From Candidatus Nomurabacteria bacterium (GTDB lineage Bacteria > Patescibacteriota > Minisyncoccia > Phycocordibacterales > UBA918): 64,000 bases of DNA. Position 1 is the first letter of the stretch. The number at the start of each line of letters is the position of its first letter. A program made the position numbers and the translations under genes. The stretch lies in assembly GCA_020632075.1 (NCBI GenBank), contig JACKGH010000001.1, forward strand, positions 131,216-195,215, read 5' to 3'. Below, one piece after another: positions 5,088 through 31,617 of this stretch. The notes beneath the pieces were generated by a model, which had not been told where the DNA came from, ran no database searches, and worked only from the letters and a program-made list of their open reading frames with translations.

Positions 5088-5738
5088 ATGAAGTATTTTA
5101 CGTCTCTCTTTTTGTGGCTGTGTTTGGTTGCGCCAGCAATGGCGTATCAGCTTACGGTGACCGAGGTGGACGAACCATATGAGATCGTTCCGATCGCGGT
5201 GGATGAATTCAATAAGCAGGTGCAGCTTGGTACACTCAACAATTTTCCGGTGATGTATGAATTTGTCATTGATTCGACGACGGAACTCTCATTTCAGCTG
5301 AGCGAAGTAGCACGAATTGAACCTACTGGCTTTTCACTCATGCTCGTGCGACAGAATGACGACGACGGTGGTGTGACCGAAGTAGTCCGTCAACCCGGCA
5401 ATGAAAATGCCTGGACACGCCTTAAAGACTCGGTGTACGGACTTACTTTTCTAGAAGGCGAGAAACTGGTGCAGGAGTTAACACCAGGGATGTATCGTCT
5501 TGAAGTAAGTACGCCAGTTAATATTGGCTCATATCGACTCACTATCGGTAGTGAATCAGATCCCCTCGGGTACTTCGCGACAGTTGGGCAGGTGCGTACG
5601 ACGCAGGCTCACTTTGGATACTCGATCGTACGTATGCTCATGTCTTCGTATGTATACTACCCGCTCGGCATCATTTTCTTGCTACTCATCATTCATCGCA
5701 CCTGGAAGTATCGTAATGTGATCAAATATGATTCTTAA
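5088..5738 (+). CDS. Hypothetical secreted protein with C-terminal TM anchor
   Basis: ATG 5088 is preceded by AGGA. Signal peptide MKYFTSLFLWLCLVAPAMA; the C-terminal hydrophobic helix is followed by a basic tail (HRTWKYRNVIKYDS). Confidence 0.5.
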   Translation: MKYFTSLFLWLCLVAPAMAYQLTVTEVDEPYEIVPIAVDEFNKQVQLGTLNNFPVMYEFVIDSTTELSFQLSEVARIEPTGFSLMLVRQNDDDGGVTEVVRQPGNENAWTRLKDSVYGLTFLEGEKLVQELTPGMYRLEVSTPVNIGSYRLTIGSESDPLGYFATVGQVRTTQAHFGYSIVRMLMSSYVYYPLGIIFLLLIIHRTWKYRNVIKYDS

Positions 5739-5818
5739 AGCGATCGTCATCATCATAGCGGCATTTGTTTTGTTTTATTTTGCCAACTTGGCGTTTTTGG
5801 GTGAGATGTAAATAAAAA

Positions 5819-5835
5819 GCCCGCTTAGAGCGGGC
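5819..5835. terminator. Bidirectional hairpin GCCCGC-ttaga-GCGGGC, overlapping the stop codon of the minus-strand gene
   Basis: It lies between convergent genes (5088..5738 plus, 5825..6460 minus) and is flanked by A-runs and T-runs. Confidence 0.55.
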
Positions 5836-6460
5836 GATGCGGGCGACGTAGTCCGTTTTTCCAGAGGACGTAATCAGTCTCGCGAATACGTGCTTGAGTA
5901 AATGACCTCATTTTTGCGTCGCCATAAAAAATGCTCGCAAGAGTTGTATCTGGGAGATCGCGAAGATCCCTGAGGTGCTGAATCCCGCTGCAGATAAGCA
6001 TCATGGCAGTTTCTTCCGTGAAGCCACTTTGACAAAGTTTACTCTGAGCTACTGATCGGTGTGGAATGTCATTCTTTTCCAGCCAGTCACTGACAAGTAG
6101 GTTTTTGGAAGCATTGATCTTTTTGCCGCCGGCAATCTCTTCAATTTCACACAAATAGAGATGTCTCAAGCCACGGTAGCGCTTGTAGCCTCGATCCCAG
6201 AAACGATGTACCTTACTCAGCTTCAGGTCGTCAGAGGGTATGATGGTGTCGTCAGGGGAAAATGCTAGCGATCTGGCTTGCAGTGCTTTCGACAATGATT
6301 CCAGGTCTTGAGGGTAAAGTCCTGGCGTTTTTCTTATTAGCGTCCAGGGCTTGTGGCGGGCAAGTTGTCGGAATGTTTTGATTTTTGCTCTTGAGAGTTT
6401 CCTCCGTAGAGTTTTGGTCAGTTGTTGCTCTTCTTGGATCAAGTTGGAATGTTCTGACAT
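5825..6460 (-). CDS. Putative HhH-type DNA glycosylase, Ogg2-like 8-oxoguanine DNA glycosylase/lyase
   Basis: GGKKINASKNLL resembles the G-x-K-EASHFLRN helix-hairpin-helix block of Ogg2-type enzymes. C-terminal DYVLWK resembles DLYLWY. I recalled the motifs from memory and ran no alignment. Confidence 0.4.
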   Translation of the reverse strand: MSEHSNLIQEEQQLTKTLRRKLSRAKIKTFRQLARHKPWTLIRKTPGLYPQDLESLSKALQARSLAFSPDDTIIPSDDLKLSKVHRFWDRGYKRYRGLRHLYLCEIEEIAGGKKINASKNLLVSDWLEKNDIPHRSVAQSKLCQSGFTEETAMMLICSGIQHLRDLRDLPDTTLASIFYGDAKMRSFTQARIRETDYVLWKNGLRRPHRPL

Positions 6461-6573
6461 CAGACTGTGCCTCTTGAAGTGTTGGTTATCTTAGGTCACT
6501 GTAGCACAGTCTATATTTGATACAAGTCATATAGACAAAAGCGTTAAAACAACGTATTCTAGCGGTGTTCGTG

Positions 6574-6604
6574 GGCGGCGGCCCTTTAGGGCCGCCGCCT
6601 TTCT
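6574..6604 (+). promoter_or_regulatory. Terminator-like hairpin (GGCGGCGGCCC-ttta-GGGCCGCCGCC + TTTCT) inside a divergent intergenic region, ~45 nt upstream of typA
   Basis: 11-bp GC stem with a T-rich tail on the plus strand. An imperfect inverted repeat CAGACTGTGC...GCACAGTCTA precedes it at 6462-6515. It is a possible leader/attenuator or small-RNA 3' end. Confidence 0.4.
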
Positions 6605-6645
6605 CAACTATTATCAGGAGCACAGAACGTTTATTTTTAGTATTT

Positions 6646-8430
6646 ATGTCACAAGAGATCCGTAATATCGCCATTATCGCGCACGTAGACCACGGTAAGA
6701 CCACTTTGACTGATGGTCTTATGGAATTCACAGGTTCACGCGACGAGGGTGCGTCAATGGACAGTAACCAGCTCGAAAAGGAGCGTGGTATTACCATTTA
6801 TGCCAAGAACACCTCGGTGACGTACAAAGACACCAAGATCAACATCGTGGACACGCCTGGCCACGCCGACTTTGGTTCAGAGGTAGAGCGGGTGCTCCGC
6901 TCGATCGACTGTGTGCTTCTTGTGGTAGATGCCCAGGAAGGCCCAATGCCACAGACTCGCTTCGTGCTCAAGAAGTCACTCGAACTCGGCCACAAGCCGA
7001 TCGTAGTGATCAACAAGATCGATAAGCCAGCCGCTGATCCAGCACACTGTGCAGACTTAGTGCTCGAATTATTCTGGGAGCTTGGAGCTTCAGAAGAGCA
7101 ATGTGAATTCCCAGTCGTCTACGCGATCGGTCGCGATGGAGTAGCGAAGCGCAACATGGAGGATGAAATGAAGGATCTTTCACCGATCCTCGATGTAGTC
7201 CTCGAACACGTGCCAGCAGCAAAGGTGTACGAAGAAGGGCAAGATCTCCGTGCGCAGGTATTCAACCTTGGCTACGACAACTTCCTCGGCCGACTTGCTA
7301 TTGCTCGTATCTACGAAGGCAAGATCGCGAAAGGTCAGCAGGTCCTTATGAAGCATAAGGGTGAAGAAATGCATAAAGGCAAGGTGGTAAAGCTCTCAAA
7401 CTACGTCGGTATTCACCCGATCGAGCAGGACGAAGCGTTTGCTGGCGACATTGTCATGATCGCTGGACTTGAAGATATTAATATTGGAGACACGATCACC
7501 GACAGTGAAGATGCTGAGCCACTGCCAGCAATCAATGTAGACGAACCAACAGTCGAAATGCAGTTTCTCGTGAACTCATCACCATTTGCGGGTCGCGAAG
7601 GGAAGTATGTGACTTCTCGTCAGATCGGTGAGCGTCTTGAGAAGGAAATGGAGATCAACGTTGGTCTCCAGGTAGAGCCAGCTGGCGGAGATGCATATAA
7701 AGTAAAGGGTCGTGGTGAAATGCACATCGCGATTCTCCTTGAGAATATGCGTCGTGAAGGCTACGAGCTTTCTGTTTCACAGCCACAGGTGATCATCAAG
7801 GAAGTAGACGGTCAGAAACAAGAGCCGTTTGAAGAAGTGACCATCGACATCCCAAGCGAATATCAGGGAGCGGTCATTGAGCGTCTCAGTAATCGTGGCT
7901 TTATCATGCAAAACATGATCCCGCACGAGAACCAAGTGCGTCTCCTCTTCGAAGGCCCAACTCGTGGTCTCTTAGGCTACAAGAACCAATTCATCATCGA
8001 CACACGTGGCGAGGGTATTCTTGCGTCACGCTTTATCGAATTCCGCGAGTACTATGGTGAGATCAAGAAGCGTCAGGTTGGCTCGATGATCTCTATGGAA
8101 AACGGCAAGGCACTCGCCTTCGCGCTCTTCAATCTCCAGGATCGTGGTGAGCTCTATATCGGAGCTGGTACTGAAGTCTACGAAGGTATGGTGCTCGGTA
8201 ACACCTCAAAGGGTGAAGAAATGACCGTGAACCCAACCAAGGGTAAGCAGCTTACCAACATGCGTGCTTCAGGTAGCGACGATGCGGTGACACTCATTCC
8301 ACACCGCCCGCTCTCGATTGAGATTGGTCTTGAGATCATGCAGGAAGACGAGTACCTCGAAGTGTGTCCAGAATCTATTCGCTTGCGAAAGCAGAAGCTG
8401 AAGGAAAGTGATCGAAAGCGAGGAAAGTAG
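6646..8430 (+). CDS. typA: Translational GTPase TypA/BipA
   Basis: G1 motif [10 protein letters not shown]; DTPGHADF; NKID. Overall EF-G-like domain order without domain IV; BipA-type C-terminal domain; 594 aa from ATG 6646. Confidence 0.9.
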
Positions 8431-8506
8431 TTTTCATTTAAAAGAAGTATGTATAAAACTTGACGTTTTGTACGTACTAAGTAGTGTAGTATTAAAACTG
8501 TAAGTT

Positions 8507-8719
8507 TTGTGTATGAGTAAAAAAACTACAACACCAAGTTTTACTAAGCAGCACTATGGCAAGTGGGTCGCTTTAGGTAGTGGCGGTAAGATACTAGCTT
8601 ATTCAAGAGATTTAAAAACGCTCTCGAATAAGGTTGGTAATAAAAAAGTTGTCTACACGAAAGCTCTAGACCCTCGAAAGATTTACGCTTTTAGCAGCTA
8701 TGGCAGTACAAAGATTTAA
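8507..8719 (+). CDS. Small basic protein with GKWVAL motif (DUF5678-like?), in an AT-rich island
   Basis: 70 aa; its 3' end overlaps the next gene by 20 nt. Local GC is far below the window average. Confidence 0.35.
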   Translation: MCMSKKTTTPSFTKQHYGKWVALGSGGKILAYSRDLKTLSNKVGNKKVVYTKALDPRKIYAFSSYGSTKI

Positions 8720-9122
8720 TTACAGTTGCCAGATTGATGGAGCATCGGGTGATGTTTGTTGTGAAAGGCCTGTTATTGAAGTGACTCTTAGTAGCGGGGG
8801 GAAACAGTTTGTCACACATGGGTTGATCGATTCAGGTTGTGTATCGACGATGGCTGATTCAAGTATCGCTGACTTCTTAGGTATTGATTTAACAACTTGC
8901 CCAGAAACAGAAGTGGGAGGAATTTGTGGTGAAGGTACTGGGTATATGAGTGAGATTGATTTCTATGTCGCAGGTGGAGGTAAAATTTTTTCCGGCCCTG
9001 TTACCTTTGTACACAACTTGCCCTTTTCAATCTTGCTTGGACACAGAAACTTCTTTGATAAATTTGATATTTTGTTTAAGAAGTCCAAGGGTTATTTCAC
9101 CATTAATAGAGTAAGGGGGTAA
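8700..9122 (+). CDS. Retropepsin-like (clan AA) aspartic protease domain protein
   Basis: The motif hydrophobic-hydrophobic-D-S-G (GLIDSGCVSTM) matches the D-T/S-G-A catalytic signature. The downstream LLGHRNFFDKFDI resembles the retropepsin flap / ILG-x-DFL region. It sits in an AT-rich island. Confidence 0.4.
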   Translation: MAVQRFNYSCQIDGASGDVCCERPVIEVTLSSGGKQFVTHGLIDSGCVSTMADSSIADFLGIDLTTCPETEVGGICGEGTGYMSEIDFYVAGGGKIFSGPVTFVHNLPFSILLGHRNFFDKFDILFKKSKGYFTINRVRG

Positions 9123-9237
9123 CTCAGAAATTTAGAGTTACTACGGTGAAGCACTTTGCTGCACATTGTCGTATAATTAACAATAGACTTACTCACGAGG
9201 ACTAACTCACGACAACTATGGAAACTTCATATTTTTT

Positions 9238-9612
9238 TTGGCGCAATTCTTTGGTTTGCTGATCGTGATCTTTGCGGTCAGTGCGCTGTTTCGTCCGCAC
9301 TTCTTGCGTGACGTCACCGATGACCTTGCGCAGGCTTCACCGCTGGTGCGACTCTTCTTTAGCATGGTTGCGATCGGTGGCGGTCTCGCGATCGTACTGA
9401 CACACAATGTCTGGGTTGCTGGCTGGCCACTTATTATCACGCTCATTGGCTGGGGCGGGCTCATCAAGGGTGTTTTGGCGCTGGTGCGTCCACAGTCGCT
9501 TATCTTGGCTGCTGATGTGGTCTATGGCTCTGAGCGACGAGCTTGGGTCACACTAGTGCTGGCTGCGCTCTTTGGTGCGTATCTGACTGCGGTTGGGTTT
9601 GGGTGTTTGTAG
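9238..9612 (+). CDS. Hypothetical integral membrane protein (4 TM)
   Basis: TTG start; hydrophobic; followed by a conserved terminator element. Confidence 0.45.
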   Translation: MAQFFGLLIVIFAVSALFRPHFLRDVTDDLAQASPLVRLFFSMVAIGGGLAIVLTHNVWVAGWPLIITLIGWGGLIKGVLALVRPQSLILAADVVYGSERRAWVTLVLAALFGAYLTAVGFGCL

Positions 9613-9627
9613 GAGTGAAGGGGTGCA

Positions 9628-9678
9628 GGCCGCGTGAGCACGAACCTTTCGGAGAAAGGTCGCTCACGCGGCCTTTCT
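9628..9678 (+). terminator. Conserved extended hairpin terminator, family A (GGCCGCGTGAGC-ACGAACCTTTC-gga-GAAAGGTCGC-TCACGCGGCC + T-run), copy 1
   Basis: ~20-bp interrupted stem; near-identical copy at 10206; related copy at 14172. Confidence 0.7.
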
Positions 9679-9741
9679 CTTTACACAAAGGCATTTTGTG
9701 GTATTTTTCACTCAGATTAATCAAGAAGGAGGTATCGTCTG

Positions 9742-10215
9742 ATGACAACCGTCACCCTTAAAGACGTGTGGAATGACTTCTTGCACGAAAATCGAGTACG
9801 AAGACGTCTGCGAAAATTAGCAAAATCATTCGGGATCAGTAAAGGTTATGTGGGGGTGCTTGCGGTGCTTCCATCGCCAACCGGTCTGAGGCGCAGCTGG
9901 TCGGTGGTCATGCTTGGAGACGAAAAGACTACGTCAGCTGAATCGGATCGATGTTTGCATGTAACTTCTTTGATGACTCATGAATGGAATGCTCAAGGAA
10001 CAGAGCGTAGTGAGCTTGTGTTCTGGAACGGAGTATATTTTGCTGGCGTGAAAACTGGGTATGTTGGTGATCAGGGTCAGCGTGGATCTATCATGCTCAC
10101 ATCAGACATTGCTGGTGCCGGGTCGATAGAAATGCTTCAAAGTTGCATTGAGCATTTTACTGAGTTCTGGAACCTTGTGTATCCAAGGCACAAAGAAAGT
10201 ATTTTGGCCGCGTGA
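9742..10215 (+). CDS. Member A of a four-member paralogous family of small cytoplasmic proteins (function unknown)
   Basis: C-terminal GSIEMLQSCIEHF..FW aligns with the SP-x-V/I-EC-[VI]-x-x-L block of the other three members. The last codons ...LAA-stop are encoded by the terminator stem GGCCGCGTGA. Confidence 0.5.
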   Translation: MTTVTLKDVWNDFLHENRVRRRLRKLAKSFGISKGYVGVLAVLPSPTGLRRSWSVVMLGDEKTTSAESDRCLHVTSLMTHEWNAQGTERSELVFWNGVYFAGVKTGYVGDQGQRGSIMLTSDIAGAGSIEMLQSCIEHFTEFWNLVYPRHKESILAA

Positions 10216-10256
10216 GCGCGAACCTTTCGGAGAAAGGTCGCTCACGCGGCCTTTTT
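10206..10256 (+). terminator. Conserved extended hairpin terminator, family A, copy 2 (overlaps the stop codon of 9742..10215)
   Basis: GGCCGCGTGAGCGCGAACCTTTCGGAGAAAGGTCGCTCACGCGGCC + TTTTT. It differs from copy 1 by one base. Confidence 0.75.
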
Positions 10257-10316
10257 GTTGACAGTGTCAATCATACCGATTACCCTACATTTTAGGTAAT
10301 CAGAAGGGGAATACTG

Positions 10317-10832
10317 ATGCAAGAGACAGTACATACTGAAAGTCCAAGTGAGCGGCAGCCACTTCGCTTCTACTGGCGCCAAGGTGTCTCAGACGAGGAT
10401 CTTACCAATGCGGTATATGATCATGTGCTCGCTTTGGTTACATCGTACGGATATGGTCAAGAGGGGGTTGGTGGAGTGAAGATCTACCTGCCTTTCATCC
10501 TTCCAGAAGATGGTAGTCTCGCCAATGCACATCGATGGGTGGTGCCGATCAATACTGATGAGGTGTCGGACCGCGCCATGAATGCCTTCATGGCGCGGTG
10601 GGAAGAGTTGGAACAGATCTGGCGTCAAGATCCTGATATTCTCATCAGAACATCTGGCGACATCATTCATGTTGGCTACTCACTCGACATCGAGGACGGC
10701 AACATCGCTTCGCCTGCGGTGGAATGTATCTTATGCCTGCCAGGCTTCGATCTGGAAGAGTTGTTTGAAGATTTCCCTGACGAGCTCGTTGAACTCTGGG
10801 ATAAAGGAGAATTCTCTCGTGTGTTCTACTGA
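10317..10832 (+). CDS. Paralogous family member B
   Basis: Shares DIIHVGYSLDIEDGNIASPAVECILCLPGF with C (DVYHVAKRVGIETYGLASPTVECVALLRDPG) and D (DVYYVAERIGEVQKVGVMPSIECVMWLQGP). The N-terminal halves also align (FYWRQ / LGWRM...VPF...W). Confidence 0.6.
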   Translation: MQETVHTESPSERQPLRFYWRQGVSDEDLTNAVYDHVLALVTSYGYGQEGVGGVKIYLPFILPEDGSLANAHRWVVPINTDEVSDRAMNAFMARWEELEQIWRQDPDILIRTSGDIIHVGYSLDIEDGNIASPAVECILCLPGFDLEELFEDFPDELVELWDKGEFSRVFY

Positions 10833-10839
10833 CGGTCGA

Positions 10840-10865
10840 GGGCGCTTGGTACAAGCGCCCTTTTT
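10840..10865 (+). terminator. Rho-independent terminator GGGCGCTTG-gta-CAAGCGCCC + TTTTT
   Basis: 9-bp stem and T-run directly after the stop of member B. Confidence 0.7.
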
Positions 10866-10904
10866 GTTGCTACAATATTCACATTAGCAATTCACTCAAT
10901 TTGT

Positions 10905-11294
10905 ATGGAAGAACTACTTAGTAATCTTGATGTCGTGACTGTTCTAGTGTCATTTGTATTGGCATTCTTACTCGGTTGGTTGTGGTATTCGCCAAAGATG
11001 TTCCTTAAGCCGTGGGCAGCAGGACACGGCATAGATACGACGGGACCAAAGACTGGCATACTGAAACCAATGGTGGCACAAGCTGCCGGCACCCTCTTGC
11101 TAGCAGTCATTACCAACATGGCTGCTCAAGATGGACATGTAGGGCACGCAGTAATAGTGGCAGTGACAGTTGCGTTTTTCATCATGTCGAGCAACCTCTA
11201 CAAGAATCCAAAGGCATGCGTGCCTGCACGTATAGAAGCGGGGTACATATTGGCCATGGTCGCGGTTATGGTGGCTGTCAATATGGTGCTGTAG
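10905..11294 (+). CDS. DUF1761-like small membrane protein
   Basis: LGWLWYSPKMFLKPW matches the G-x-LWYSP-x-lFGK-x-W signature. 4 TM. Confidence 0.5.
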   Translation: MEELLSNLDVVTVLVSFVLAFLLGWLWYSPKMFLKPWAAGHGIDTTGPKTGILKPMVAQAAGTLLLAVITNMAAQDGHVGHAVIVAVTVAFFIMSSNLYKNPKACVPARIEAGYILAMVAVMVAVNMVL

Positions 11295-11315
11295 TTTTTA
11301 ACCATTTAGTAAAAT

Positions 11316-11504
11316 ATGAAAACTATTGCGTGTTTAGATTGCAGTCAGCAATTCAGTGGTGAAACTCCTGAAGAAGTAATGCAGGCTATGATGCCACACT
11401 ACATGGTGGACCATAAGGAAGTCATGGAAGGTGGAAATGAGGAAAAGAAGAAAGAATGGTTTGCTGAATTTCAACGACGCTGGAATGTAGCAGAGAATAG
11501 TTAG
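11316..11504 (+). CDS. DUF1059-like small protein
   Basis: MKTIACLDCSQQFSGETPEEVMQAMMPHYMVDH resembles DUF1059 (MK-x-x-C-x-D-x-G-x-x-C-x-F-x-x-x-x-ETEEE-x-x-x-x-x-x-x-H). Confidence 0.5.
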   Translation: MKTIACLDCSQQFSGETPEEVMQAMMPHYMVDHKEVMEGGNEEKKKEWFAEFQRRWNVAENS

Positions 11505-11599
11505 CAGAATTGCAAAAAGCCTAATGGACACACTAGGCTTCTTGTTGACTCTGTGCACTACATGTTGTATTGTCCAATGAGCAGAAGGGAGGAACGTAC

Positions 11600-12112
11600 A
11601 TGCTTCAAAGAGGGGAATTGGCGCTTGGTTGGAGAATGACCAAGCCAGTCGAAGTGTTTCAAGATGACATGCGTGAGATCATGAAAGCAATGCTGCTCTC
11701 GTCGGACTACATCGGTGATGGGCTTCTGGTCATGCGTATTCGTGTGCCGTTCGTCTACAGGCACAGCATGCCTGAATACAAAGACTTTCCACTGATGGCG
11801 CCAATTGGCGACATTCGCTTGTCGCAAGAGCAAGTTGGGCGCATGAATAAGACCTGGGTCGATCTGTACTACAGGTGGATCAGTGACAATGATGGAGTGC
11901 ATACTCAGATTCGTAGTGAGGGTGACGTGTATCATGTTGCCAAGCGTGTCGGGATCGAGACGTACGGTCTAGCATCACCGACGGTCGAGTGCGTCGCGCT
12001 CTTGCGTGATCCGGGTTGTCCCTTCATGGAACTGTGCGAAGGAGCACTCGACATCTTTTGGGAAGAGTCTGGGCTGATCGCGTTTGGTCCGACTATCGAA
12101 GACAGCAAATAG
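11600..12112 (+). CDS. Paralogous family member C
   Basis: ATG 11600 has a GGGAGG RBS. The conserved SPTVECVALLRDPGCP block is shown under member B. Confidence 0.6.
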   Translation: MLQRGELALGWRMTKPVEVFQDDMREIMKAMLLSSDYIGDGLLVMRIRVPFVYRHSMPEYKDFPLMAPIGDIRLSQEQVGRMNKTWVDLYYRWISDNDGVHTQIRSEGDVYHVAKRVGIETYGLASPTVECVALLRDPGCPFMELCEGALDIFWEESGLIAFGPTIEDSK

Positions 12113-12121
12113 TACTACTGA

Positions 12122-12146
12122 GGTCGCCCTTTGGGCGGCCTTTTTT
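12122..12146 (+). terminator. Rho-independent terminator GGTCGCCC-ttt-GGGCGGCC + TTTTTT (the GCCC-TTT-GGGC family)
   Basis: Hairpin and T6 directly after the stop of member C. Confidence 0.75.
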
Positions 12147-12162
12147 GATACACTGATTCAGT

Positions 12163-13380
12163 ATGAAAATTGCTTCTGGTTTTTTGGCTGCACTCGTCTT
12201 GCTAATGAGCGTGCCACAGGCGCAAGCGGCGGCAGTGAATGAGGAGTACGTGTGGCAACTCACTGCCATCTCTGAGTATGTGGAACGCTTACTTGGAGTG
12301 CATCCGCCACTTGATACCGCTGAAAAGCGAGACATCATCGCAGCCGGCACGGCGTGGACAGTGGCTTCGCAGGAGGAGAATGGGCACTTTGGATATGAGT
12401 ACGCACCATATGATGGTGTGTATCTGCGAGGAGAAGGGATGGTGCGGCAGGCGGGTACACTTTTTATGTTGTCTGAAGTATATCTGCAGCAGACTGAAAA
12501 AGATCCAAGGATCGCCACTGCAATTGAACAAGCGATCGATTATTTTGAAAGCATCAGTCTAGAAGAAGGCTCTTTTTGGTGCATCAAGAATTCAGAGCGT
12601 AGTACGAAGTGTGAACTTGGTAGCGCAAGTCTGGCTTTGATCGGCCTTGTGAACTATGTGACAGCGGTGCCAGAGAAAGAGAAGGTGTATGAGTCGCTGA
12701 TTGAAAATTATTTTAACTACCTCCGAGTAGCGAAGTTTGTTGGGAAGGGTTTTAGTGCAAATTACGACGCTGAAGATAGTTTTAGTGCAAAGGAGTCGCC
12801 ATTCTACAACGGTGAAGCTATGTTGGCTCTAGTGAAGTATTATCAGTACCGACCGGATAACGAGGTGAAAGATATGCTCCAAGAGACGTTTGAGCATTTA
12901 CGCAAGCAGGAGCACGAGTCGCCGCTTTATTTATGGATCATGGCCGCGCTCAAGGAAATGAAAGTGCTGTGGCCAAATGAAGCGTATGTAACATACGCAA
13001 AGGATTTTACTAATGAGCGATTGGTGAGCGCGGCCACTCGCCATCATCTTACTCATAACTATTGCGCGCCACTAGAAGGTTTGGTGAGTGCGTATAGCGT
13101 ACTTGAAGGAACCGCTGACGATGAACTGCTTACGCAACTGTACGATGAGATCCAGTATTGGCTGTCTCGCACGACGGCTTTGCAGGTTGGTCGTACGACA
13201 CCATATCGCGTGAACACTATAGATGGTGTGTTGCAACTACAAACAGTCACAGATCCTGCTCAAGCGTACGGTGGTTTCTTAACGGGTGAAGAGGTGTTGA
13301 CTCAGCGTATCGACTTTACGCAGCATTGTGTGAGTGCGTACTTACAAACGTTGGTGGATATTGAGGGTGAGGAGCTGTAA
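12163..13380 (+). CDS. Secreted hypothetical protein, alpha-helical repeat (possibly alpha/alpha-toroid-like)
   Basis: Signal peptide MKIASGFLAALVLLMSVPQAQA. Recurrent helical hairpin motifs (LALIGLVNY, GEAMLALVKYY, LWIMAALKEM). No confident family. Confidence 0.5.
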   Translation: MKIASGFLAALVLLMSVPQAQAAAVNEEYVWQLTAISEYVERLLGVHPPLDTAEKRDIIAAGTAWTVASQEENGHFGYEYAPYDGVYLRGEGMVRQAGTLFMLSEVYLQQTEKDPRIATAIEQAIDYFESISLEEGSFWCIKNSERSTKCELGSASLALIGLVNYVTAVPEKEKVYESLIENYFNYLRVAKFVGKGFSANYDAEDSFSAKESPFYNGEAMLALVKYYQYRPDNEVKDMLQETFEHLRKQEHESPLYLWIMAALKEMKVLWPNEAYVTYAKDFTNERLVSAATRHHLTHNYCAPLEGLVSAYSVLEGTADDELLTQLYDEIQYWLSRTTALQVGRTTPYRVNTIDGVLQLQTVTDPAQAYGGFLTGEEVLTQRIDFTQHCVSAYLQTLVDIEGEEL

Positions 13381-13383
13381 GGT

Positions 13384-13406
13384 GGCCGGCGCCGAAGGCG
13401 CCGGCC
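13384..13406 (+). terminator. Palindrome family B (GGCCGGCGCC-gaa-GGCGCCGGCC) directly after the stop of 12163..13380
   Basis: Perfect 10-bp stem. Its T-tail is weak. The identical 23-mer recurs at 14306 inside a CDS. Confidence 0.5.
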
Positions 13407-13427
13407 CTTGTGCTACACTATTTTCAT

Positions 13428-13634
13428 ATGGATCCAAAAGTACAAGAACAACTCGACGAGCTCGAAATGAAGGTTAATGCGGTGTATACGTCAGTCGAGA
13501 AGATCCGCAAGTACATGCTAATCACTGCTTGGGTGACGATCGCGGTGATCGTTTTGCCACTGGTGGGTCTTGTGTTTGCTATTCCTGCCTTACTTAGCAC
13601 GATCAGTGAAGCTACAGCGTTAATGCAGTTTTAG
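13428..13634 (+). CDS. Small membrane protein (one TM), hypothetical
   Basis: MDPKVQEQLDELEMKV... followed by a hydrophobic helix. The start could instead be 13410. Confidence 0.35.
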   Translation: MDPKVQEQLDELEMKVNAVYTSVEKIRKYMLITAWVTIAVIVLPLVGLVFAIPALLSTISEATALMQF

Positions 13635-13692
13635 TTGACAAAAACCCCTGACGTCGTAGGGTAGAGAAAAGTGTTCATTGGGAGAGCTTGTC

Positions 13693-14181
13693 ATGCGCAT
13701 ACGTGACTTGATGCAAGAGATGCTGCTTAGATTTGGTGAGGCATTTGTTCGTTTCGTGGTGCGTAACCGTATCATGCTGCATCTCAGTCGTAACAAATTC
13801 AGTTATGAAGCATACATCAGCTTGATCGTGTATATACCGGAAGCTAATGGTCGCCGAGTGTTTACGAAGATGTGGCAATTCCCGGTTCGTAAGCAGTCAG
13901 TGACGGAGCGTGAAGCAGTAAGAATGCAGGAGCACTATCGTGAGCTGCAAGTTAAGTGGTTGCGGGCGGGGGACAAAGACGACGTCTTTCGTCTCCATGA
14001 CGTCTACTATGTAGCTGAACGGATCGGTGAAGTACAAAAAGTTGGTGTTATGCCGTCGATCGAGTGTGTTATGTGGCTCCAAGGTCCTATGCACGATGAT
14101 CTGGCTGCCAGCATTCGAAAAAGCTTCCCGTACTTTTGGTGGATAGCAACTGGCCAGAAGTTGCCTGATGCGGCCGCGTGA
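13693..14181 (+). CDS. Paralogous family member D
   Basis: ATG 13693 is preceded by GGAGAG. The MPSIECVMWLQGP block is shown under member B. The C-terminal ...DAAA-stop is encoded inside the family-A terminator stem. Confidence 0.6.
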   Translation: MRIRDLMQEMLLRFGEAFVRFVVRNRIMLHLSRNKFSYEAYISLIVYIPEANGRRVFTKMWQFPVRKQSVTEREAVRMQEHYRELQVKWLRAGDKDDVFRLHDVYYVAERIGEVQKVGVMPSIECVMWLQGPMHDDLAASIRKSFPYFWWIATGQKLPDAAA

Positions 14182-14220
14182 GTGCCTTTCTTCGAAAGGC
14201 CGTGCTCACGCGGCCTTTTT
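14172..14220 (+). terminator. Conserved extended hairpin terminator, family A, copy 3 (GGCCGCGTGAG-TGCCTTTC-ttcg-GAAAGGC-CGTG-CTCACGCGGCC + TTTTT), overlapping the stop of member D
   Basis: Same outer arms as copies 1 and 2, with a diverged centre. Confidence 0.7.
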
Positions 14221-14244
14221 GTTTTGGGTGTATAGTAGAAGGGT

Positions 14245-14718
14245 ATGAAAAATGCTCTCATTGTTTTTGTCTTGCTCACTCTGGGTGGCATATTGTTGTA
14301 TAGTTGGCCGGCGCCGAAGGCGCCGGCCGAGAATCCGGCTGAACCTGAAGTCCCGCTGTCGAGCTATGCAATATTTATCCATGATGAAGTTAGTGTGCCG
14401 GTTGACTCCCGGAGGGTAGATCTCTCAGGCAGAGGTCTTAACGGATCGCTAAAGGCGGAAATTCGCCAGCTTACTGAGCTACGCGAACTTGATCTTGCAC
14501 ACAACAACTTCACTGGTTTACCCGCTGAAGTTGGTCAATTGTCGAAACTTGAAGTGCTCAATTTGTCCGATAATCCACTGACTGGACTGCCGCACGAGCT
14601 GGGGAATCTGCAAAACTTGAAGACACTTGATCTTCGTGGAACGCAGTATTCCACATATGATTTAAATGTGATTCAGGCTGCTCTGCCAAGTGAAGTTGAA
14701 ATACTGACAGATCAGTGA
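14245..14718 (+). CDS. Secreted leucine-rich-repeat (LRR) protein
   Basis: Signal peptide. Four or more LRRs (LRELDLAHNNFTGLP, LSKLEVLNLSDNPLTGLP, LQNLKTLDLRGT). The family-B palindrome is embedded at 14306-14328, encoding WPAPKAPAE. Confidence 0.7.
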   Translation: MKNALIVFVLLTLGGILLYSWPAPKAPAENPAEPEVPLSSYAIFIHDEVSVPVDSRRVDLSGRGLNGSLKAEIRQLTELRELDLAHNNFTGLPAEVGQLSKLEVLNLSDNPLTGLPHELGNLQNLKTLDLRGTQYSTYDLNVIQAALPSEVEILTDQ

Positions 14719-14744
14719 TTGGAATTACGGTATACTGATTTTAT

Positions 14745-15761
14745 ATGAAACGAAACACTTTTCTGATGCTGCTCGCGTTTTTGGTCGTGCCCGTAACTAC
14801 TTCCGCCTACGATGGGTTCGGTAGAATTGATCGTAACAATCTCGATGATGAGATCGTCGATCAATTTCCTCTCCCGATCTTGTTTGGTGTCGATCTCTCA
14901 ACAGTTGTACCAGACTTTGGTGACCCCAGAGACGGTGGAGAACGCTCTCATGAAGGGCAAGATATTCGCGCACCAAAAGGAACGCCGATCGTTTCCCCGA
15001 CCGAGGCGATCGTGATCAAGACCGGTGATGGTGTGTACTCGGGGAAGTATGTATACACTGCCAATCCTGGCGGTGAGACCTTCCGTTACATGCATCTTGA
15101 TACGATCGCTTCTGATCTTGATTCTGGCGACCTCCTTGATGTGGGGGACTTCATTGGTACTGTCGGTGATACAGGCAATGCTCCCGAGGGTGTCTATCAT
15201 CTCCATCTTGAGATCCTTAATGAAGACAATGATCCAACTGATCCATTTGAACGTTTTGATCCAGCAGGATTCACACTTAAGGAAAAAATGTCATTCTTGC
15301 GTGACATCTTTAGTGGAATGAAACAAGACGAGGAGTATGCTGAGTTTTTGGTAGAGACATTCAATAGTGACTTCATGACAGCGTATCAAAAAGGTTACTC
15401 CATGCCGAATGTGATCGATGAGGTGCTTGAAGATGCTGGTGCGAGTACGCAGTCGCAACAGTTGCAACGCTTTACTGAGCTTATTGCAGCACTCCCGATG
15501 GCGCTTCAAATGGAGCTTCGTAGTGGCGATCAGGGGCCGGCTGTGCAGCTGTTGCAGTTGTATCTTATTTACACCGGTAACGGGCCGGCGCGAGACAAGC
15601 TGCGAGCAGCGGGACCAACCGGGTACTTTGGGCTGGTCACAACTGCTGCGCTGGCAGAGTTTCAGAAAGATAAGCTCATTATTGATAACAAAGGTGTATA
15701 CGATGCACAGACCAGAACTGGTATGATGAAGTACCAGTATCCAAATTTAAATTTCAACTAA
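14745..15761 (+). CDS. M23 family metallopeptidase with C-terminal peptidoglycan-binding domain (PG_binding_1-like)
   Basis: HEGQDI...D and HLHLEI motifs (HxxxD / HxH). C-terminal GDQGPAVQLLQLYL...GYFGLVTTAALAEFQ. Signal peptide. Confidence 0.8.
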   Translation: MKRNTFLMLLAFLVVPVTTSAYDGFGRIDRNNLDDEIVDQFPLPILFGVDLSTVVPDFGDPRDGGERSHEGQDIRAPKGTPIVSPTEAIVIKTGDGVYSGKYVYTANPGGETFRYMHLDTIASDLDSGDLLDVGDFIGTVGDTGNAPEGVYHLHLEILNEDNDPTDPFERFDPAGFTLKEKMSFLRDIFSGMKQDEEYAEFLVETFNSDFMTAYQKGYSMPNVIDEVLEDAGASTQSQQLQRFTELIAALPMALQMELRSGDQGPAVQLLQLYLIYTGNGPARDKLRAAGPTGYFGLVTTAALAEFQKDKLIIDNKGVYDAQTRTGMMKYQYPNLNFN

Positions 15762-15762
15762 C

Positions 15763-15981
15763 ATGCAACTCTTCGGACTACTTTCGCTCATTATCGTAAT
15801 AGCCATCATTGGTTGGTGGATGAGTACAGGGCTGGTGCAGGTACCAGCTACTGCGCCATCTGCAGAGGATCGCTCAAGCTCGTTCTATGTCATCCCGCCA
15901 GATCCGGAAAGTTCACCGGTGCCAACCTACGGCGATGCACTCGATGCGGCTCGCGGTGCGGCTGACGCGATGGAACGGTAG
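15763..15981 (+). CDS. Small membrane protein, hypothetical
   Basis: The ATG lies 1 nt after the M23 stop. One TM, then a Pro/Ser-rich tail. Confidence 0.35.
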   Translation: MQLFGLLSLIIVIAIIGWWMSTGLVQVPATAPSAEDRSSSFYVIPPDPESSPVPTYGDALDAARGAADAMER

Positions 15982-16014
15982 GTAGACAACGGACACTTCC
16001 AGTGTCGCAAAGAC

Positions 16015-16332
16015 GTGCACACTAGAATCGGGTGTATACTGCAAAAGATGACATACATACCACAGAAATACTGTGATATGTGTTTGATGCCGTTCTCGCA
16101 AGATCCTGGGGTACGCGAGCACGAATACTACTGCAGCTACTGCTACAAAAATGGGGAACTAACATACAAAGGAGATGATCTCCATGCCTTTCAGAAACTC
16201 TGGTACGTGCGTATGCGACAAAACGGTATGAGCCGGTGGCGTGCCAAGTTTTCTGCTTGGATGATCCGCTTTGCGCCACACTGGAAGAGGGAGAAAAGGC
16301 TCTTCGTTGGCCCAGTAAACACCTATCACTAA
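16015..16332 (+). CDS. Putative zinc-ribbon protein (Zn_ribbon_2-like); the true start is probably ATG 16048
   Basis: YCDMCLMPF...YYCSYCYKNGELTY gives two CxxC pairs in the arrangement of the putative zinc ribbon family. Confidence 0.45.
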   Translation: MHTRIGCILQKMTYIPQKYCDMCLMPFSQDPGVREHEYYCSYCYKNGELTYKGDDLHAFQKLWYVRMRQNGMSRWRAKFSAWMIRFAPHWKREKRLFVGPVNTYH

Positions 16333-16336
16333 ATAG

Positions 16337-17245
16337 CTAGAGAGTGGTCACCCAGGCACTATTTGGGTCTGCTTGCTCTGCAGCAAGTGCAGTGCGGATT
16401 TTTTCTGTGATCGTGCCGGGGGTATGGTCATTGATCTCACGTCCGTCTATCTCAAGAATTGGTGCAATGAAAGCCGAAGTACCACTCGCAAAGACTTCGT
16501 CTGCAGTGTAGAGCTCGGTCAGTGCGACCTTGCGCTCGATGACTGGGATGTCGAGTCGCGCGGCCAGCTCGATCACACTCCGACGTGTGATGCCTTCTAG
16601 GATGTCTGACGCACAGTCGGGTGTGATCAGCTGGCCGCGCTTTACCATAAAGACATTGGCTGCAGAGAGCTCGCTTACATAGCCATTGTTGTTGAGAAAC
16701 AGACAATCGTCCATGCCTGCGTCAAGGGCGTCTTGTTTAGCGAGGGCAGAATTTACATAAGCTCCATTCACTTTGGCACGCGCGGGGATCGCACTGTCAG
16801 TGGTGCGTCGCCAGAGACTGGTCTTCAGTCTAGCGCCACTTTCAGGAAGGATCTTGTCAGCGTCCATCATGAACACACTAAAGGCGAGTTCAAGGTCTTT
16901 GGTGCGTACACCAGGCGCAAGGGAAGTTGCATGTACAGTGAGTCTAAAGAACTGATCTTTGGTTGGTTTGTTTGCTTCGATCAATGCTTGGATTTGTGCT
17001 TTAAATTGATCCTCGACCACATACTCTTCAGCTCCGTTTAAACCGATCATCCGTGCTGATTGCTTAAGTCGAATGAGGTGCTCCGGAATGCGAAAACAAA
17101 GCATTCCTTCGCTTGTGTGCTTGGCAAAAAAGACTGAGTAGACGCTGAGTCCGTAGAGCACAGCAGAGCTTGCAACAGAAAGGTGTGCTTCAGCTAAAGG
17201 CACGATCTTACCATTAATCAGTGCGTTTGGTGCGAGATTTGCCAT
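16337..17245 (-). CDS. ilvE: Class IV PLP-dependent aminotransferase (branched-chain amino acid aminotransferase-like)
   Basis: NGAYVNSALAKQDALDAGMDDCLFLNNNGYVSELSAANVFMVK and EGITRRSV motifs; 302 aa. It could alternatively be a D-amino-acid aminotransferase. Confidence 0.8.
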   Translation of the reverse strand: MANLAPNALINGKIVPLAEAHLSVASSAVLYGLSVYSVFFAKHTSEGMLCFRIPEHLIRLKQSARMIGLNGAEEYVVEDQFKAQIQALIEANKPTKDQFFRLTVHATSLAPGVRTKDLELAFSVFMMDADKILPESGARLKTSLWRRTTDSAIPARAKVNGAYVNSALAKQDALDAGMDDCLFLNNNGYVSELSAANVFMVKRGQLITPDCASDILEGITRRSVIELAARLDIPVIERKVALTELYTADEVFASGTSAFIAPILEIDGREINDHTPGTITEKIRTALAAEQADPNSAWVTTL

Positions 17246-17365: not shown

Positions 17366-18337
17366 ATGGAGGACTACTTAATATCCCTAGTCCTAGTGGT
17401 TTTATCAGGGCTCTTCTCGGGCTTAACACTAGGGCTACTCTCTCTCGATCTACAGTCATTGCGACGCCGTGCGAAGCATGGAGATCGAAGTGCAGCTATC
17501 ATTTACCCAGTACGAGAAAAGGGTAACTTACTACTCACGACATTGTTGCTTGGCAACGTGGCGGTTAATACGACGTTGTCTATTTATCTCGGTAGTATTG
17601 CGTCGGGTATTGTTGCTGGCATTATCGCAACCGCGCTCATCGTGATCTTTGGTGAGATCATTCCGCAGGCAGTGATCTCTCGCTACGCACTCTGGTTTGG
17701 CGCTAAGACGATCTGGTTCACTCGTGTGGTGATCGTGCTCTTTTTTCCGATCTCGTATCCAATTGCAAAGACTCTCGATTACTTTCTGGGTGCTGAATTG
17801 CCAACTACCTATTCACACAAGGAGCTCATGGATATCATCTCTGAGCATGAAGATTCTGAACTAAGTTCGATCGATGAAGATGAAGAACGCATTATGCATG
17901 GTGCGCTACGGTTTTCCCACATGTCAGTGCGTGAAGTAATGACTCCTGCTGAACGAGTGGTTTCATTTGATGAAAATCAGCGCCTCACTGACGCATTCTT
18001 CGAAGAGGTCAACGAGCATGGCTTCTCTCGCTTGCCGATCTATAGCGGCGAGAAGGCTAATGTAGTTGGCATTCTGTATGTTAAAGACTTGATCGTCGAA
18101 GATGACCATATTTCAATCAAAGAAACGGAGGAGGCATTCGATCGCAAATTCATAACTGTTCGCACGGACGATCTCCTTGACGCCGTTCTTGGAAAGATGC
18201 TCAAATCACGACAGCATCTGGCTATTGTACGTAATCGAAGCAAGCAGTACGCCGGTGTTATCTCGCTCGAAGATATTATCGAAGAGATCATTCAGCAGGA
18301 GATCGTCGATGAGGATGATGATATTGAAGAGGTATAG
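17366..18337 (+). CDS. CNNM/HlyC-CorC family membrane protein (DUF21 TM domain + CBS pair), without the CorC_HlyC C-domain
   Basis: N-terminal 4-TM DUF21-like region. CBS motifs (MTPAERVVSFDENQ, GFSRLPIY, VVGILYVKDLI). Acidic C-terminus. Confidence 0.8.
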   Translation: MEDYLISLVLVVLSGLFSGLTLGLLSLDLQSLRRRAKHGDRSAAIIYPVREKGNLLLTTLLLGNVAVNTTLSIYLGSIASGIVAGIIATALIVIFGEIIPQAVISRYALWFGAKTIWFTRVVIVLFFPISYPIAKTLDYFLGAELPTTYSHKELMDIISEHEDSELSSIDEDEERIMHGALRFSHMSVREVMTPAERVVSFDENQRLTDAFFEEVNEHGFSRLPIYSGEKANVVGILYVKDLIVEDDHISIKETEEAFDRKFITVRTDDLLDAVLGKMLKSRQHLAIVRNRSKQYAGVISLEDIIEEIIQQEIVDEDDDIEEV

Positions 18338-29147: not shown

Positions 29148-29594
29148 ATGACAAAGCCACAGCATAAGGTTCTGGTCACTTCAGCTCGACCTGCCGTGTC
29201 CAAAGGGTCACAAGAGCACGACCTCTTTGCTTCAAGACCAGCTGCCGGCTTCCCTGCGCCTGGCGATGATCTGGTGGAGCGTCCACTTGATCTCAATGAT
29301 CTGATGGTTGAACATCCAACCGCAACCTTTTTCGTGCGGGTATCAGGTGATTCTATGGAAGGAGCTCGGATTTTTGATGGTGATATTCTTGTAGTAGATC
29401 GTTCGATTGAGCCTAAGAACGGCCTGATTGTAGTGGCTGCGGTCTACGGCGAGTTGGTAGTGAAGCGTTTGCGTAAGCTGTCTGGTGGTATGGCGCTCGT
29501 TTCAGAGCAAGAAGGCTACGAACCGATCAGTATTGATGAGGCCGAAGGATGTTATATTTGGGGTGTAGTGACCGGCAGTGCGCGGGTTTTTTAG
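29148..29594 (+). CDS. umuD: S24 LexA/UmuD-like self-cleaving peptidase; no HTH, so UmuD-like
   Basis: Ser nucleophile in SGDSM, Lys in VVKRL. ~148 aa with no DNA-binding N-domain. Confidence 0.7.
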   Translation: MTKPQHKVLVTSARPAVSKGSQEHDLFASRPAAGFPAPGDDLVERPLDLNDLMVEHPTATFFVRVSGDSMEGARIFDGDILVVDRSIEPKNGLIVVAAVYGELVVKRLRKLSGGMALVSEQEGYEPISIDEAEGCYIWGVVTGSARVF

Positions 29595-29627: not shown

Positions 29628-30812
29628 ATGAATACAAGAGTAACAAAATGGGGGTTTGTCGCCATGCTGGCGCTTTTTATCACAACGCCACTTTCGGTTG
29701 ACGCTCGTGAGCAAGTAGCAGCTTGGCTACCATGGTGGTCTGAAGAGGCTGGGATCGAAAGTGCGACAAAGCACATGAAGAAGATCGATATTCTGTACCC
29801 ATTCGTGTTCGAGGTGAAGGAGGACGGTTCCCTTTTGAATCGCGTTGATTTTGATGATAAGCAGTGGGAAGACCTCTTTGATGAGGCTGATGATGAGCGT
29901 GTAAAAGTGATCCCGACTGTGATGTGGTTCGATGGAGATGCGATCCATGAGGTTTTGAGCGACAGAAAGGCTCGCAAGGAGCACATCGATGAGATCGCGC
30001 GAATGGTGCGTAAATACCGCTTTGATGGGGTAAATATTGACTATGAAGGGAAGTTGTCGGAGACGATCGATGACTACTCTGATTTCCTCAAGGAACTCAA
30101 TGATGAGCTTGGCCGTCGTCGCTATCTTACCTGTACGGTAGAGGCTCGCACTCCCCCAGAATCACGATGGAAAGAAGTGCCAGAAGTAATCAACTATGCC
30201 AATGATTATGAAGCAATGAACAAGCACTGTGATTGGATCGAAATCATGGCCTATGACCAGCAGCGAGCCGACTTAAAGCTCAATGACGAGCGTCGTGGGG
30301 TACCGTATATGCCAGTGGCAGACACCGAATGGGTAGAAAAGGTGGTAGAACTTGCGCTTGAGGATTTTGATGAAGATAAGGTATTACTCGGCGTACCGAC
30401 TTACGGACGAGCCTGGGATGTGACGGTGGCGGCCGATTGGTATCGAGATTACGAGCGGGTAGCTTCGCTTAATCATCCACGCATCATGGAACTGGCTGAT
30501 AAGTACGACGCACCAATCGGCCGCACTGAAGGCGGCGAAGCAGTGATCAGCTACTTCCCTGAGGATTCTGTCTGGAAGATCTTTAATGCGCTACCGACCC
30601 CCAAAGGCACCCCAAAGGGCTTTGAAGCTGCCGCTAAAGCGCTTATGGTAGCGACTTATGCCGATATTGAGATCCCGGTTCGAGTCGTGATCTGGAGCGA
30701 TGCTGAAGCGATCGATGAGAAGCTTGATCTGGTGAAAAAGTACGACCTCAAGGGAACTGCGATCTTTAAGGTTGACGGCGAGGAAGATCCGGACGTGTGG
30801 AAGCTTTTCTAG
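29628..30812 (+). CDS. Glycoside hydrolase family 18 (chitinase/peptidoglycan-hydrolase-like), secreted
   Basis: Signal peptide. Catalytic motif FDGVNIDYEG (D-x-x-D-x-D-x-E). IEIMAYDQQ. Confidence 0.7.
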   Translation: MNTRVTKWGFVAMLALFITTPLSVDAREQVAAWLPWWSEEAGIESATKHMKKIDILYPFVFEVKEDGSLLNRVDFDDKQWEDLFDEADDERVKVIPTVMWFDGDAIHEVLSDRKARKEHIDEIARMVRKYRFDGVNIDYEGKLSETIDDYSDFLKELNDELGRRRYLTCTVEARTPPESRWKEVPEVINYANDYEAMNKHCDWIEIMAYDQQRADLKLNDERRGVPYMPVADTEWVEKVVELALEDFDEDKVLLGVPTYGRAWDVTVAADWYRDYERVASLNHPRIMELADKYDAPIGRTEGGEAVISYFPEDSVWKIFNALPTPKGTPKGFEAAAKALMVATYADIEIPVRVVIWSDAEAIDEKLDLVKKYDLKGTAIFKVDGEEDPDVWKLF

Positions 30813-31538: not shown

Positions 31539-31570
31539 ATCGCCCGGTTCTGACACCGGGCGATTTTTTA
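31539..31570 (+). terminator. Rho-independent terminator ATCGCCCGGT-tctgac-ACCGGGCGAT + T6
   Basis: 10-bp perfect stem. Confidence 0.75.
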
Positions 31571-31617
31571 TGATTCAATTTGAGTTTTACTACTCAAAGA
31601 TTGCTATACTATCCAGA

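Follow-up and report, generated by a model that had tools for sequence, protein, structure and literature searches.

The 64-kb window analyzed here (the whole stretch of contig JACKGH010000001.1 from a Candidatus Nomurabacteria bacterium that was examined) contains four short open reading frames (ORFs), labeled A, B, C, and D, which form an array of strongly diverged, dispersed paralogs, as the original prediction for this DNA had proposed. We suggest, at a little under even confidence, that A to D represent a clade-restricted family of nonenzymatic, partner-binding small cytoplasmic proteins, present as a diversified set in a gene-content hotspot between typA and a CNNM gene. Genomes of the candidate phyla radiation (CPR, or Patescibacteria) are small, a large share of their genes has no assigned function, and lineage-specific hypothetical protein families are common in them; one such set of hypothetical genes now becomes a coherent family with a confident predicted fold, extremely fast evolution, and a defined plasticity zone (typA–CNNM) that is comparable across many genomes.

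Relatedness of the four paralogs

All four ORFs lie on the + strand exactly where they had been placed, and the peptide blocks quoted for them are found verbatim in the sequences. Their features are as follows.

Paralog A, 9742..10215, + strand: 157 aa, isoelectric point (pI) 8.6; NCBI KC877_01870; basic; probably belongs to the D-type branch, from which it has diverged far
Paralog B, 10317..10832, + strand: 171 aa, pI 4.2; acidic branch; identical with P0002 of the large protein search
Paralog C, 11600..12112, + strand: 170 aa, pI 4.9; KC877_01850; the copy used for the structure model
Paralog D, 13693..14181, + strand: 162 aa, pI 9.6; KC877_01835; basic branch

BLASTP aligns B with C at E 9e-14 (28% identity over 145 aa), C with D at E 1e-7 (28% over 72 aa), and B with D at E 2e-6 (19% over 113 aa). 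These similarities are beyond chance and, as judged from sequence, identify B, C, and D as true paralogs; the identities measured among the three in pairwise BLASTP (19–28%) are lower than the 25 to 35% first estimated. The nearest relatives of D are the database proteins P0004 and P0005 (34–36% identity).

The claim of four diverged paralogs thus stands for B, C, and D, and is only probable for A, by way of weaker statistics. A shows no significant similarity to B or C (BLASTP E > 5) or to a B/C/D hidden Markov model (HMM; E 8.9 among the 511 window ORFs scanned), and reaches only E 0.014 against D. It aligns with the D-like homolog P0004 (BLASTP E 8e-5, 23% over 132 colinear residues), and it scores 8.3 bits against a seven-sequence HMM, a value attained by none of 1000 shuffles. 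The hhalign comparison with a nine-sequence profile extends over the full length of A (P 5.8e-4 over 134 colinear columns) and is better than that of any of about 400 control ORFs of matched size, whose alignments span just 11 to 33 columns. When about 15,000 ORFs are searched with a nine-member profile built without A, A is the best match other than the sequences in the profile; with a seven-member profile it is found among the top few subthreshold matches. A and D also both terminate inside the same unusual 3′ hairpin. From the P0004, HMM, and hhalign statistics together with the 3′ hairpin common with D, we take A to be very probably a family member and, with moderate confidence, a degenerate representative of the basic D-type branch. 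The segment GSIEMLQSCIEHF, once given as the motif equivalent of A, is the wrong one: the alignments place GSIEMLQSCIEHF on the C-terminal helix, and the residues of A at the P-x-V-E-C...W-L-P position are RGSIMLTSDIAGAG, with the E-C...W-L-P signature gone. An AlphaFold2 (AF2) model of A computed without an alignment (predicted local distance difference test, pLDDT, 37) is unusable and speaks neither for nor against membership.

Distribution of the family

To the extent that it is visible, the family is confined to a narrow Paceibacteria/Kaiserbacteria clade. No member is matched by Pfam (A to D at E ≤ 1, all 10 aligned members at E ≤ 5), NCBIfam, PADLOC, or PHROGs. Nothing significant came from PDB sequences searched by profile, and the phage and plasmid records contain no family matches. 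HMMER, run with the B/C/D profile over the full set of 1.84 billion representative proteins, recovered the three queries and three further homologs, P0004, P0005, and P0007 (156–175 aa), in keeping with the earlier suggestion of a novel or lineage-specific family. The same scan returned P0006 (2240 aa, 13 stretches), which proved to be a repeat artifact on reading its sequence. Word-index homolog searches with C, with a six-sequence alignment, and with A found only the queries themselves or known members, and a D-type alignment searched against genome contigs and metagenome contigs revealed no related loci. The identical C protein is present in at least six independent samples, all of the same strain and on short contigs; P0004 and P0005 are known from contigs of 0.9 and 2.2 kb, and context beyond the typA loci is thin.

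We then screened 80 loci around typA, taken from related genomes, for extra members. In genome L028, the ORF at 12938–13435 is a member (E 1.6e-3 among 14,476 ORFs), and in L009 the ORF at 8456–8929, which carries SVMEGQLWLPKP, matches it at E 4e-6. L028 12330–12845 and L009 5525–6022 are related to one another (E 4e-3), and for neither did any of 1000 shuffles score higher. All four of these extra members lie beyond the reach of the B/C/D profile alone, and the apparent rarity of the family is in part a consequence of its fast divergence. Short local matches only were obtained for L026 6009–6482 and L036 400–834, which were set aside. Membership could likewise not be established for L028 10924–11430 and 11549–11992 (shuffle p about 0.03–0.05; nothing by hhalign). 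With these two ORFs (147–168 aa), L028 (UBA3466) has four small genes in a row behind typA, and the two may be still more diverged copies.

Predicted fold and protein features

The proteins are predicted from their sequences to be soluble, cytoplasmic, and about 160 aa long: none of the paralogs has a signal-peptide-like or transmembrane-like N terminus, and grand average of hydropathy values range from −0.5 to 0.05. They fall into two charge classes, an acidic one made up of B, C, P0007, and the L028 and L009 copies (pI 4.2–5.0) and a basic one made up of A, D, P0004, and P0005 (pI 8.6–9.6).

An AF2 model of C computed from a six-sequence alignment reached a mean pLDDT of 83.7 and a predicted template modeling score (pTM) of 0.78, with all five models at 82 to 84. 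Its elements are ordered β0-α1-β1-β2-α2-β3-β4-β5-α3, and we assign the fold, with moderate confidence, as a Roadblock/LC7–MglB/GAF-like α-β-β-α-β-β-β-α sandwich with an extra N-terminal strand. Structural resemblances of the model include Roadblock/LC7 proteins (3kye, 9.3; Asgard Roadblocks, 8.8), MglB (8.8), and MglC, and further LAMTOR2/3, Rag C-terminal domains, GAF domains, and the α/β core of β-lactamase. A Foldseek search of the PDB with the C model gave no match at E ≤ 1e-3; its weak top ranks were Rag, LAMTOR, MglB, and IclR C-terminal domains (TM-scores 0.4–0.5), and a BFVD search gave only weak, generic GAF-like matches. The Roadblock/GAF likeness of the modeled fold is best regarded as resemblance and not as proven membership.

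On the C model, the conserved block corresponds to strands β4 (D-V-Y-H-V) and β5 (P-x-V-E-C-x-x-x-L) and the turn into α3, whereas the W/R-rich N-terminal block corresponds to β0. A 10-member alignment contains no invariant column, and half of the 10 members have other residues in place of the Glu-Cys pair (Met for Cys in P0005; Glu-Phe, Val-Phe, and Ile-Met elsewhere). These observations speak against catalysis and in favor of a structural core that carries variable surfaces.

Speed of divergence

D and the L009 member at 8456–8929 both lie directly upstream of a leucine-rich repeat (LRR) gene, yet they share just 18% identity (E 3.2). In the same two genomes, the flanking proteins are 69% (LRR), 61% (M23), 69% (aminotransferase), 78% (CNNM), and 88% (TypA) identical. 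Either the family would be evolving far faster than its neighbors, or paralogs may be swapped at fixed sites; each of these would fit a diversifying repertoire.

The typA–CNNM interval is a plasticity zone

The array occupies an interval whose borders and internal genes are listed here; gaps between genes within the array are short (about 50–100 nt).

typA, 6565–8430: left border of the interval
Hypervariable interval, 8431..16336, unstranded: about 8 kb, 15 genes; from Pfam scans and synteny over the 80 typA loci
DUF1761 membrane protein gene, 10905–11294: between B and C; Pfam E 7e-9
DUF1059 gene, 11316–11504: between B and C; 24.6 bits versus a cutoff of 21.1
405-aa protein (p405) gene, 12163–13380: between C and D; signal-peptide-like N terminus, matches no family
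74-aa transmembrane-like ORF, 13410–13634: between C and D
Class-IV aminotransferase gene, 16337–17245, − strand: right border of the interval
CNNM/CBS gene, 17366–18337: beyond the aminotransferase gene

Apart from the paralogs, the interval harbors genes for a DUF5678 protein, a retropepsin-like ORF, a 124-aa membrane ORF, DUF1761, DUF1059, the 405-aa secreted-looking protein, the 74-aa transmembrane protein, an LRR protein, an M23 peptidase, a 72-aa protein (p72), and a Zn-ribbon protein. The interleaving of unrelated genes had been noted before, and the DUF1761 and DUF1059 assignments hold; for the 405-aa protein, the signal-peptide-like N terminus agrees with secretion, and there is no family match to back a description as a helical-repeat protein.

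Among 80 related Patescibacteria genomes (L009–L088), the size of this interval ranges from about 30 bp (L021, where typA is followed by CNNM) to about 9 kb, and its content consists of shuffled subsets of LRR, DUF1761, p72, M23, DUF1059, Zn-ribbon, p405, and other ORFs. The typA–CNNM interval is therefore a plasticity zone, that is, a gene-content hotspot. Family members occur there in at least four other organisms. In L008, P0005 follows typA by 86 nt (that typA being 94% identical as protein and 81% as DNA); in L028, typA is followed by four consecutive ORFs of about 150 to 170 aa, two of which are members; in L009, two members are scattered among p405, DUF1761, and LRR genes; and in L007, P0004 precedes a homolog of the window's 72-aa gene.

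Other small genes of these loci show arrangements of their own. The DUF5678-like 70-aa ORF (8507–8719) overlaps the 140-aa retropepsin-like ORF (8700–9122) by 20 nt; both Pfam matches are weak and below gathering thresholds. The pair recurs at other positions (L032 6001–6708 and L037 15779–16513), which suggests a portable two-gene module. The typA–CNNM interval of L015 contains tandem related ORFs at 5412–5765 and 5784–6119 (111–117 aa; MRAKNGFHCSL... and MRAPNGQSCTV...), unrelated to A to D. Upstream of P0004, L007 1–90 holds a frame ending ...LNCRPRKVLDWATPTEVLLESFG, which resembles an IS30-type transposase C terminus; NCBIfam gives no match for this 28-aa fragment, and we make no claim for it.

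Hairpins and transcription units

Each of the four paralogs is followed by a hairpin and a T-run, in agreement with the proposal that each has its own terminator, and these hairpins are far more stable than shuffled sequence (z −4.2 to −6.2).

Hairpin copy 1, 9628..9685, + strand: upstream of A; extended 20-bp hairpin with U-run, −37.3 kcal/mol, z −5.9
Hairpin copy 2, 10206..10263, + strand: terminator of A, 20-bp stem; left arm overlaps the last codons of A
Terminator-like hairpin after B, 10838..10862, + strand: from terminator scan and folding versus shuffles
Terminator-like hairpin after C, 12120..12142, + strand: from terminator scan and folding versus shuffles
Hairpin copy 3, 14172..14223, + strand: terminator of D, overlaps the last codons of D; same outer stem, different inner stem (placed at 14194–14219 by the terminator scan)

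The long hairpins (about 46 nt, 20 bp, −37 kcal/mol) are unusually long and have an outer stem in common, GGCCGCGTGAGC / GCTCACGCGGCC. In the window this stem is confined to three sites (9628, 10206, and 14172); the same outer stem is also found 3′ of P0004 in another organism (L007 703–730). Copies 1 and 2 constitute a 58-nt direct repeat, 93% identical, that flanks gene A. Copy 1 is directly followed by TTTACA, a −35-like hexamer, and copy 2 by TTGACA and then the 5′ region of B, such that the leaders of A and B are alike: a hairpin module, a −35-like hexamer, and then TAATCA...GAAGG...ATG. As the 58-nt modules are 93% identical and the genes that they border are barely alignable, the noncoding junctions are far better conserved than the coding sequence. 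Each copy has its own ribosome-binding-site-like sequence, and every paralog gene, having a promoter-like site and a terminator, would be transcribed as a separate unit. A reading of the hairpins as integron cassettes was dropped, given that no integrase is encoded by the window ORFs scanned and that the U-runs are those of ordinary intrinsic terminators. An Rfam scan of the window yielded one tRNA and nothing else.

Proposed function and alternatives

Because no residue is conserved in all members, Glu-Cys included, we infer that the paralogs are nonenzymatic binding modules. The hydrophobic core would be retained while the surfaces diversify, and with the core kept and surfaces variable, each paralog would recognize a different partner, whether a separate protein or a ligand. 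Duplication, differential loss, and recombination inside the hotspot would maintain the diversified set. The function that we prefer, possible but still doubtful at about one chance in three, is partner-specific sequestration or neutralization inside the cell during biological conflict, in an immunity-like or anti-effector role, which fits the array organization, the extreme divergence at fixed positions, and the hotspot location. Several observations weigh against this proposal. No toxin, effector, or defense gene adjoins any copy in the window or the related loci, and no gene accompanies the family consistently as a partner (many relatives that lack the family have DUF1761, and the same holds for p405 and for LRR); relaxed constraint could also give fast divergence, without conflict; the fold match is generic (3–13% identity) and the C model was built on six sequences only; and the membership of A is based on several marginal statistics, none of them decisive.

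The specific case that the paralogs serve a polymorphic-toxin or contact-dependent antagonism system as orphan immunity proteins, each directed against a different competitor toxin in the manner of esaG (DUF600) strings or acquired interbacterial defense islands, is unlikely. It would account for an array of diverged paralogs in a hypervariable locus, for their extreme divergence where the position is fixed, and for small, cytoplasmic proteins without a catalytic motif; the near-identical hairpin/promoter modules around A could act as recombination substrates, and strings of nonidentical immunity paralogs that recombine between tandem copies are on record for type VII secretion systems (T7SSs; PMC9484751). 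However, the array and its divergence pattern are the sole positive evidence for immunity proteins or decoys. In the window, L007, L008, L009, and L028 alike, the copies have neither toxin genes, nor C-terminal fragments of toxins, nor secretion-system genes beside them. As the original prediction had it, no cognate toxin is nearby: the scanned ORFs of the 64-kb window, including both ends of a 7780-aa ORF, contain no Pfam toxin domain, and none of these four other genomes places a homolog beside a toxin domain. There is no Imm, SUKH, or SMI1 match in Pfam (E ≤ 1–5) and none in PADLOC, the copies are interleaved with unrelated genes and do not form a tight string, and the predicted Roadblock/GAF-like fold is outside the classical immunity folds. 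A profile match to the Colicin-E9 immunity protein in the PDB (E 1.2) is at chance level, and a match of D to DpdE in PADLOC (E 0.006, 12 bits, 62 of 1083 positions) was treated as chance. A more elaborate version, in which hyper-divergent Roadblock-like intracellular neutralizers form a diversified repertoire in an episymbiotic Paceibacteria/Kaiserbacteria hotspot with the hairpin-promoter modules as cassette-exchange junctions, is improbable. Equally, we find it hard to favor a Roadblock/MglB-type regulatory platform, in which homodimers or heterodimers would serve an NTPase or other signaling partner as scaffold or regulator and acidic B and C might pair with basic A and D. The two charge classes (pI 4.2–5.0 and 8.6–9.6) and the member 86 nt directly 3′ of the GTPase gene typA in L008 would suit such a platform, but none of the 10 members has a Robl_LC7 Pfam match even at E ≤ 5, and the window ORFs scanned encode no Ras-like or MglA-like GTPase, the nearby GTPase being translational TypA only. 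Moreover, at least 76 of the 80 relatives carry typA without a detectable family member, and the closeness to typA has its explanation in the interval itself, which is an insertion hotspot; regulators of conserved machinery seldom fall below 20% identity where TypA is 88% identical.

A stand-alone GAF-like small-molecule binder or sensor, or a GAF-fold enzyme (e.g., free methionine-R-sulfoxide reductase) using the conserved Cys, is very improbable: Cys and Glu are lost in P0005, P0007, L028 12330, L009 5525, and A, there is no GAF Pfam match and no output domain, and ligand-binding housekeeping proteins would be neither so rare nor so divergent. The chance that the genes are junk ORFs that an accessory island carries without maintained function, either in decay or effectively neutral, appears slighter still; extreme divergence, a patchy distribution, and the loss of the family motif in A point that way, but the frames are intact and full-length (156–175 aa) in several genomes, the hydrophobic core pattern is kept, just six sequences gave a confident fold prediction, every copy comes with a strong terminator and a ribosome-binding-site-like sequence of its own, and the identical C protein is seen in at least six independent samples.

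Neither the fold nor the context indicates a new mechanism. If the proteins are partner-specific binders in conflict or host interaction, the locus marks strain-level antagonism or host specificity in episymbionts; if they are not binders of that kind, this is a routine lineage-specific family. Should they be Roadblock-like neutralizers, they would represent a new immunity-protein fold class and the first defined conflict locus in this CPR clade. The gain so far is an 11-member seed alignment, a fold assignment, and a mapped hotspot.

Other features of the window

Outside the interval, a single 7780-aa ORF (40097–63439, + strand) yielded no domains other than DUF2341 in its first and last 1500 residues, and its C terminus showed no toxin domain. 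An ORF at 36017–37918 with dockerin type I and Big_6 domains neighbors one at 38456–40006 with cohesin and Big_13 domains, a possible cohesin–dockerin surface assembly in a CPR genome. An S24 (LexA/UmuD-like) peptidase (29148–29594) and a Y-family polymerase (31570–32868; IMS, IMS_C, and DUF4113) are separated by a GH18 glycosyl hydrolase gene (29628–30812) and a 203-aa ORF.

Comparison with known systems

The α-β-β-α-β-β-β(-α) sandwich of the Roadblock/LC7–MglB–LAMTOR/Ragulator proteins (Pfam Robl_LC7, PF03259) appears to be matched by the modeled fold of the A–D family, although there is no sequence relation (no Pfam match at E ≤ 5; 5–11% identity), and the A–D family has an additional N-terminal strand and no partner small GTPase gene nearby. 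An NTPase usually has a single, conserved Roadblock protein as its partner, whereas the A–D family is multicopy and hyper-divergent. The A–D family differs from the GAF and IclR C-terminal ligand-binding domains in that neither GAF nor IclR is matched in Pfam, no output or DNA-binding domain is attached, and pocket residues are not conserved. Strings of diverged immunity paralogs, such as the EsaG/DUF600 arrays of T7SSs and orphan immunity islands, differ from A to D in that the latter lack a cognate or orphan toxin, a secretion-system context, and similarity to a curated immunity family, and have genes for unrelated membrane and secreted proteins between them. Among the traits of polymorphic-toxin immunity, toxin-gene association and membership in a described family are absent from A to D, and diverged arrays in a strain-variable locus are present. 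Such immunity strings (PMC9484751) resemble A to D in having nonidentical paralogs of about 160 aa in one variable locus, in their rapid divergence, and in repeated flanks that could mediate recombination.

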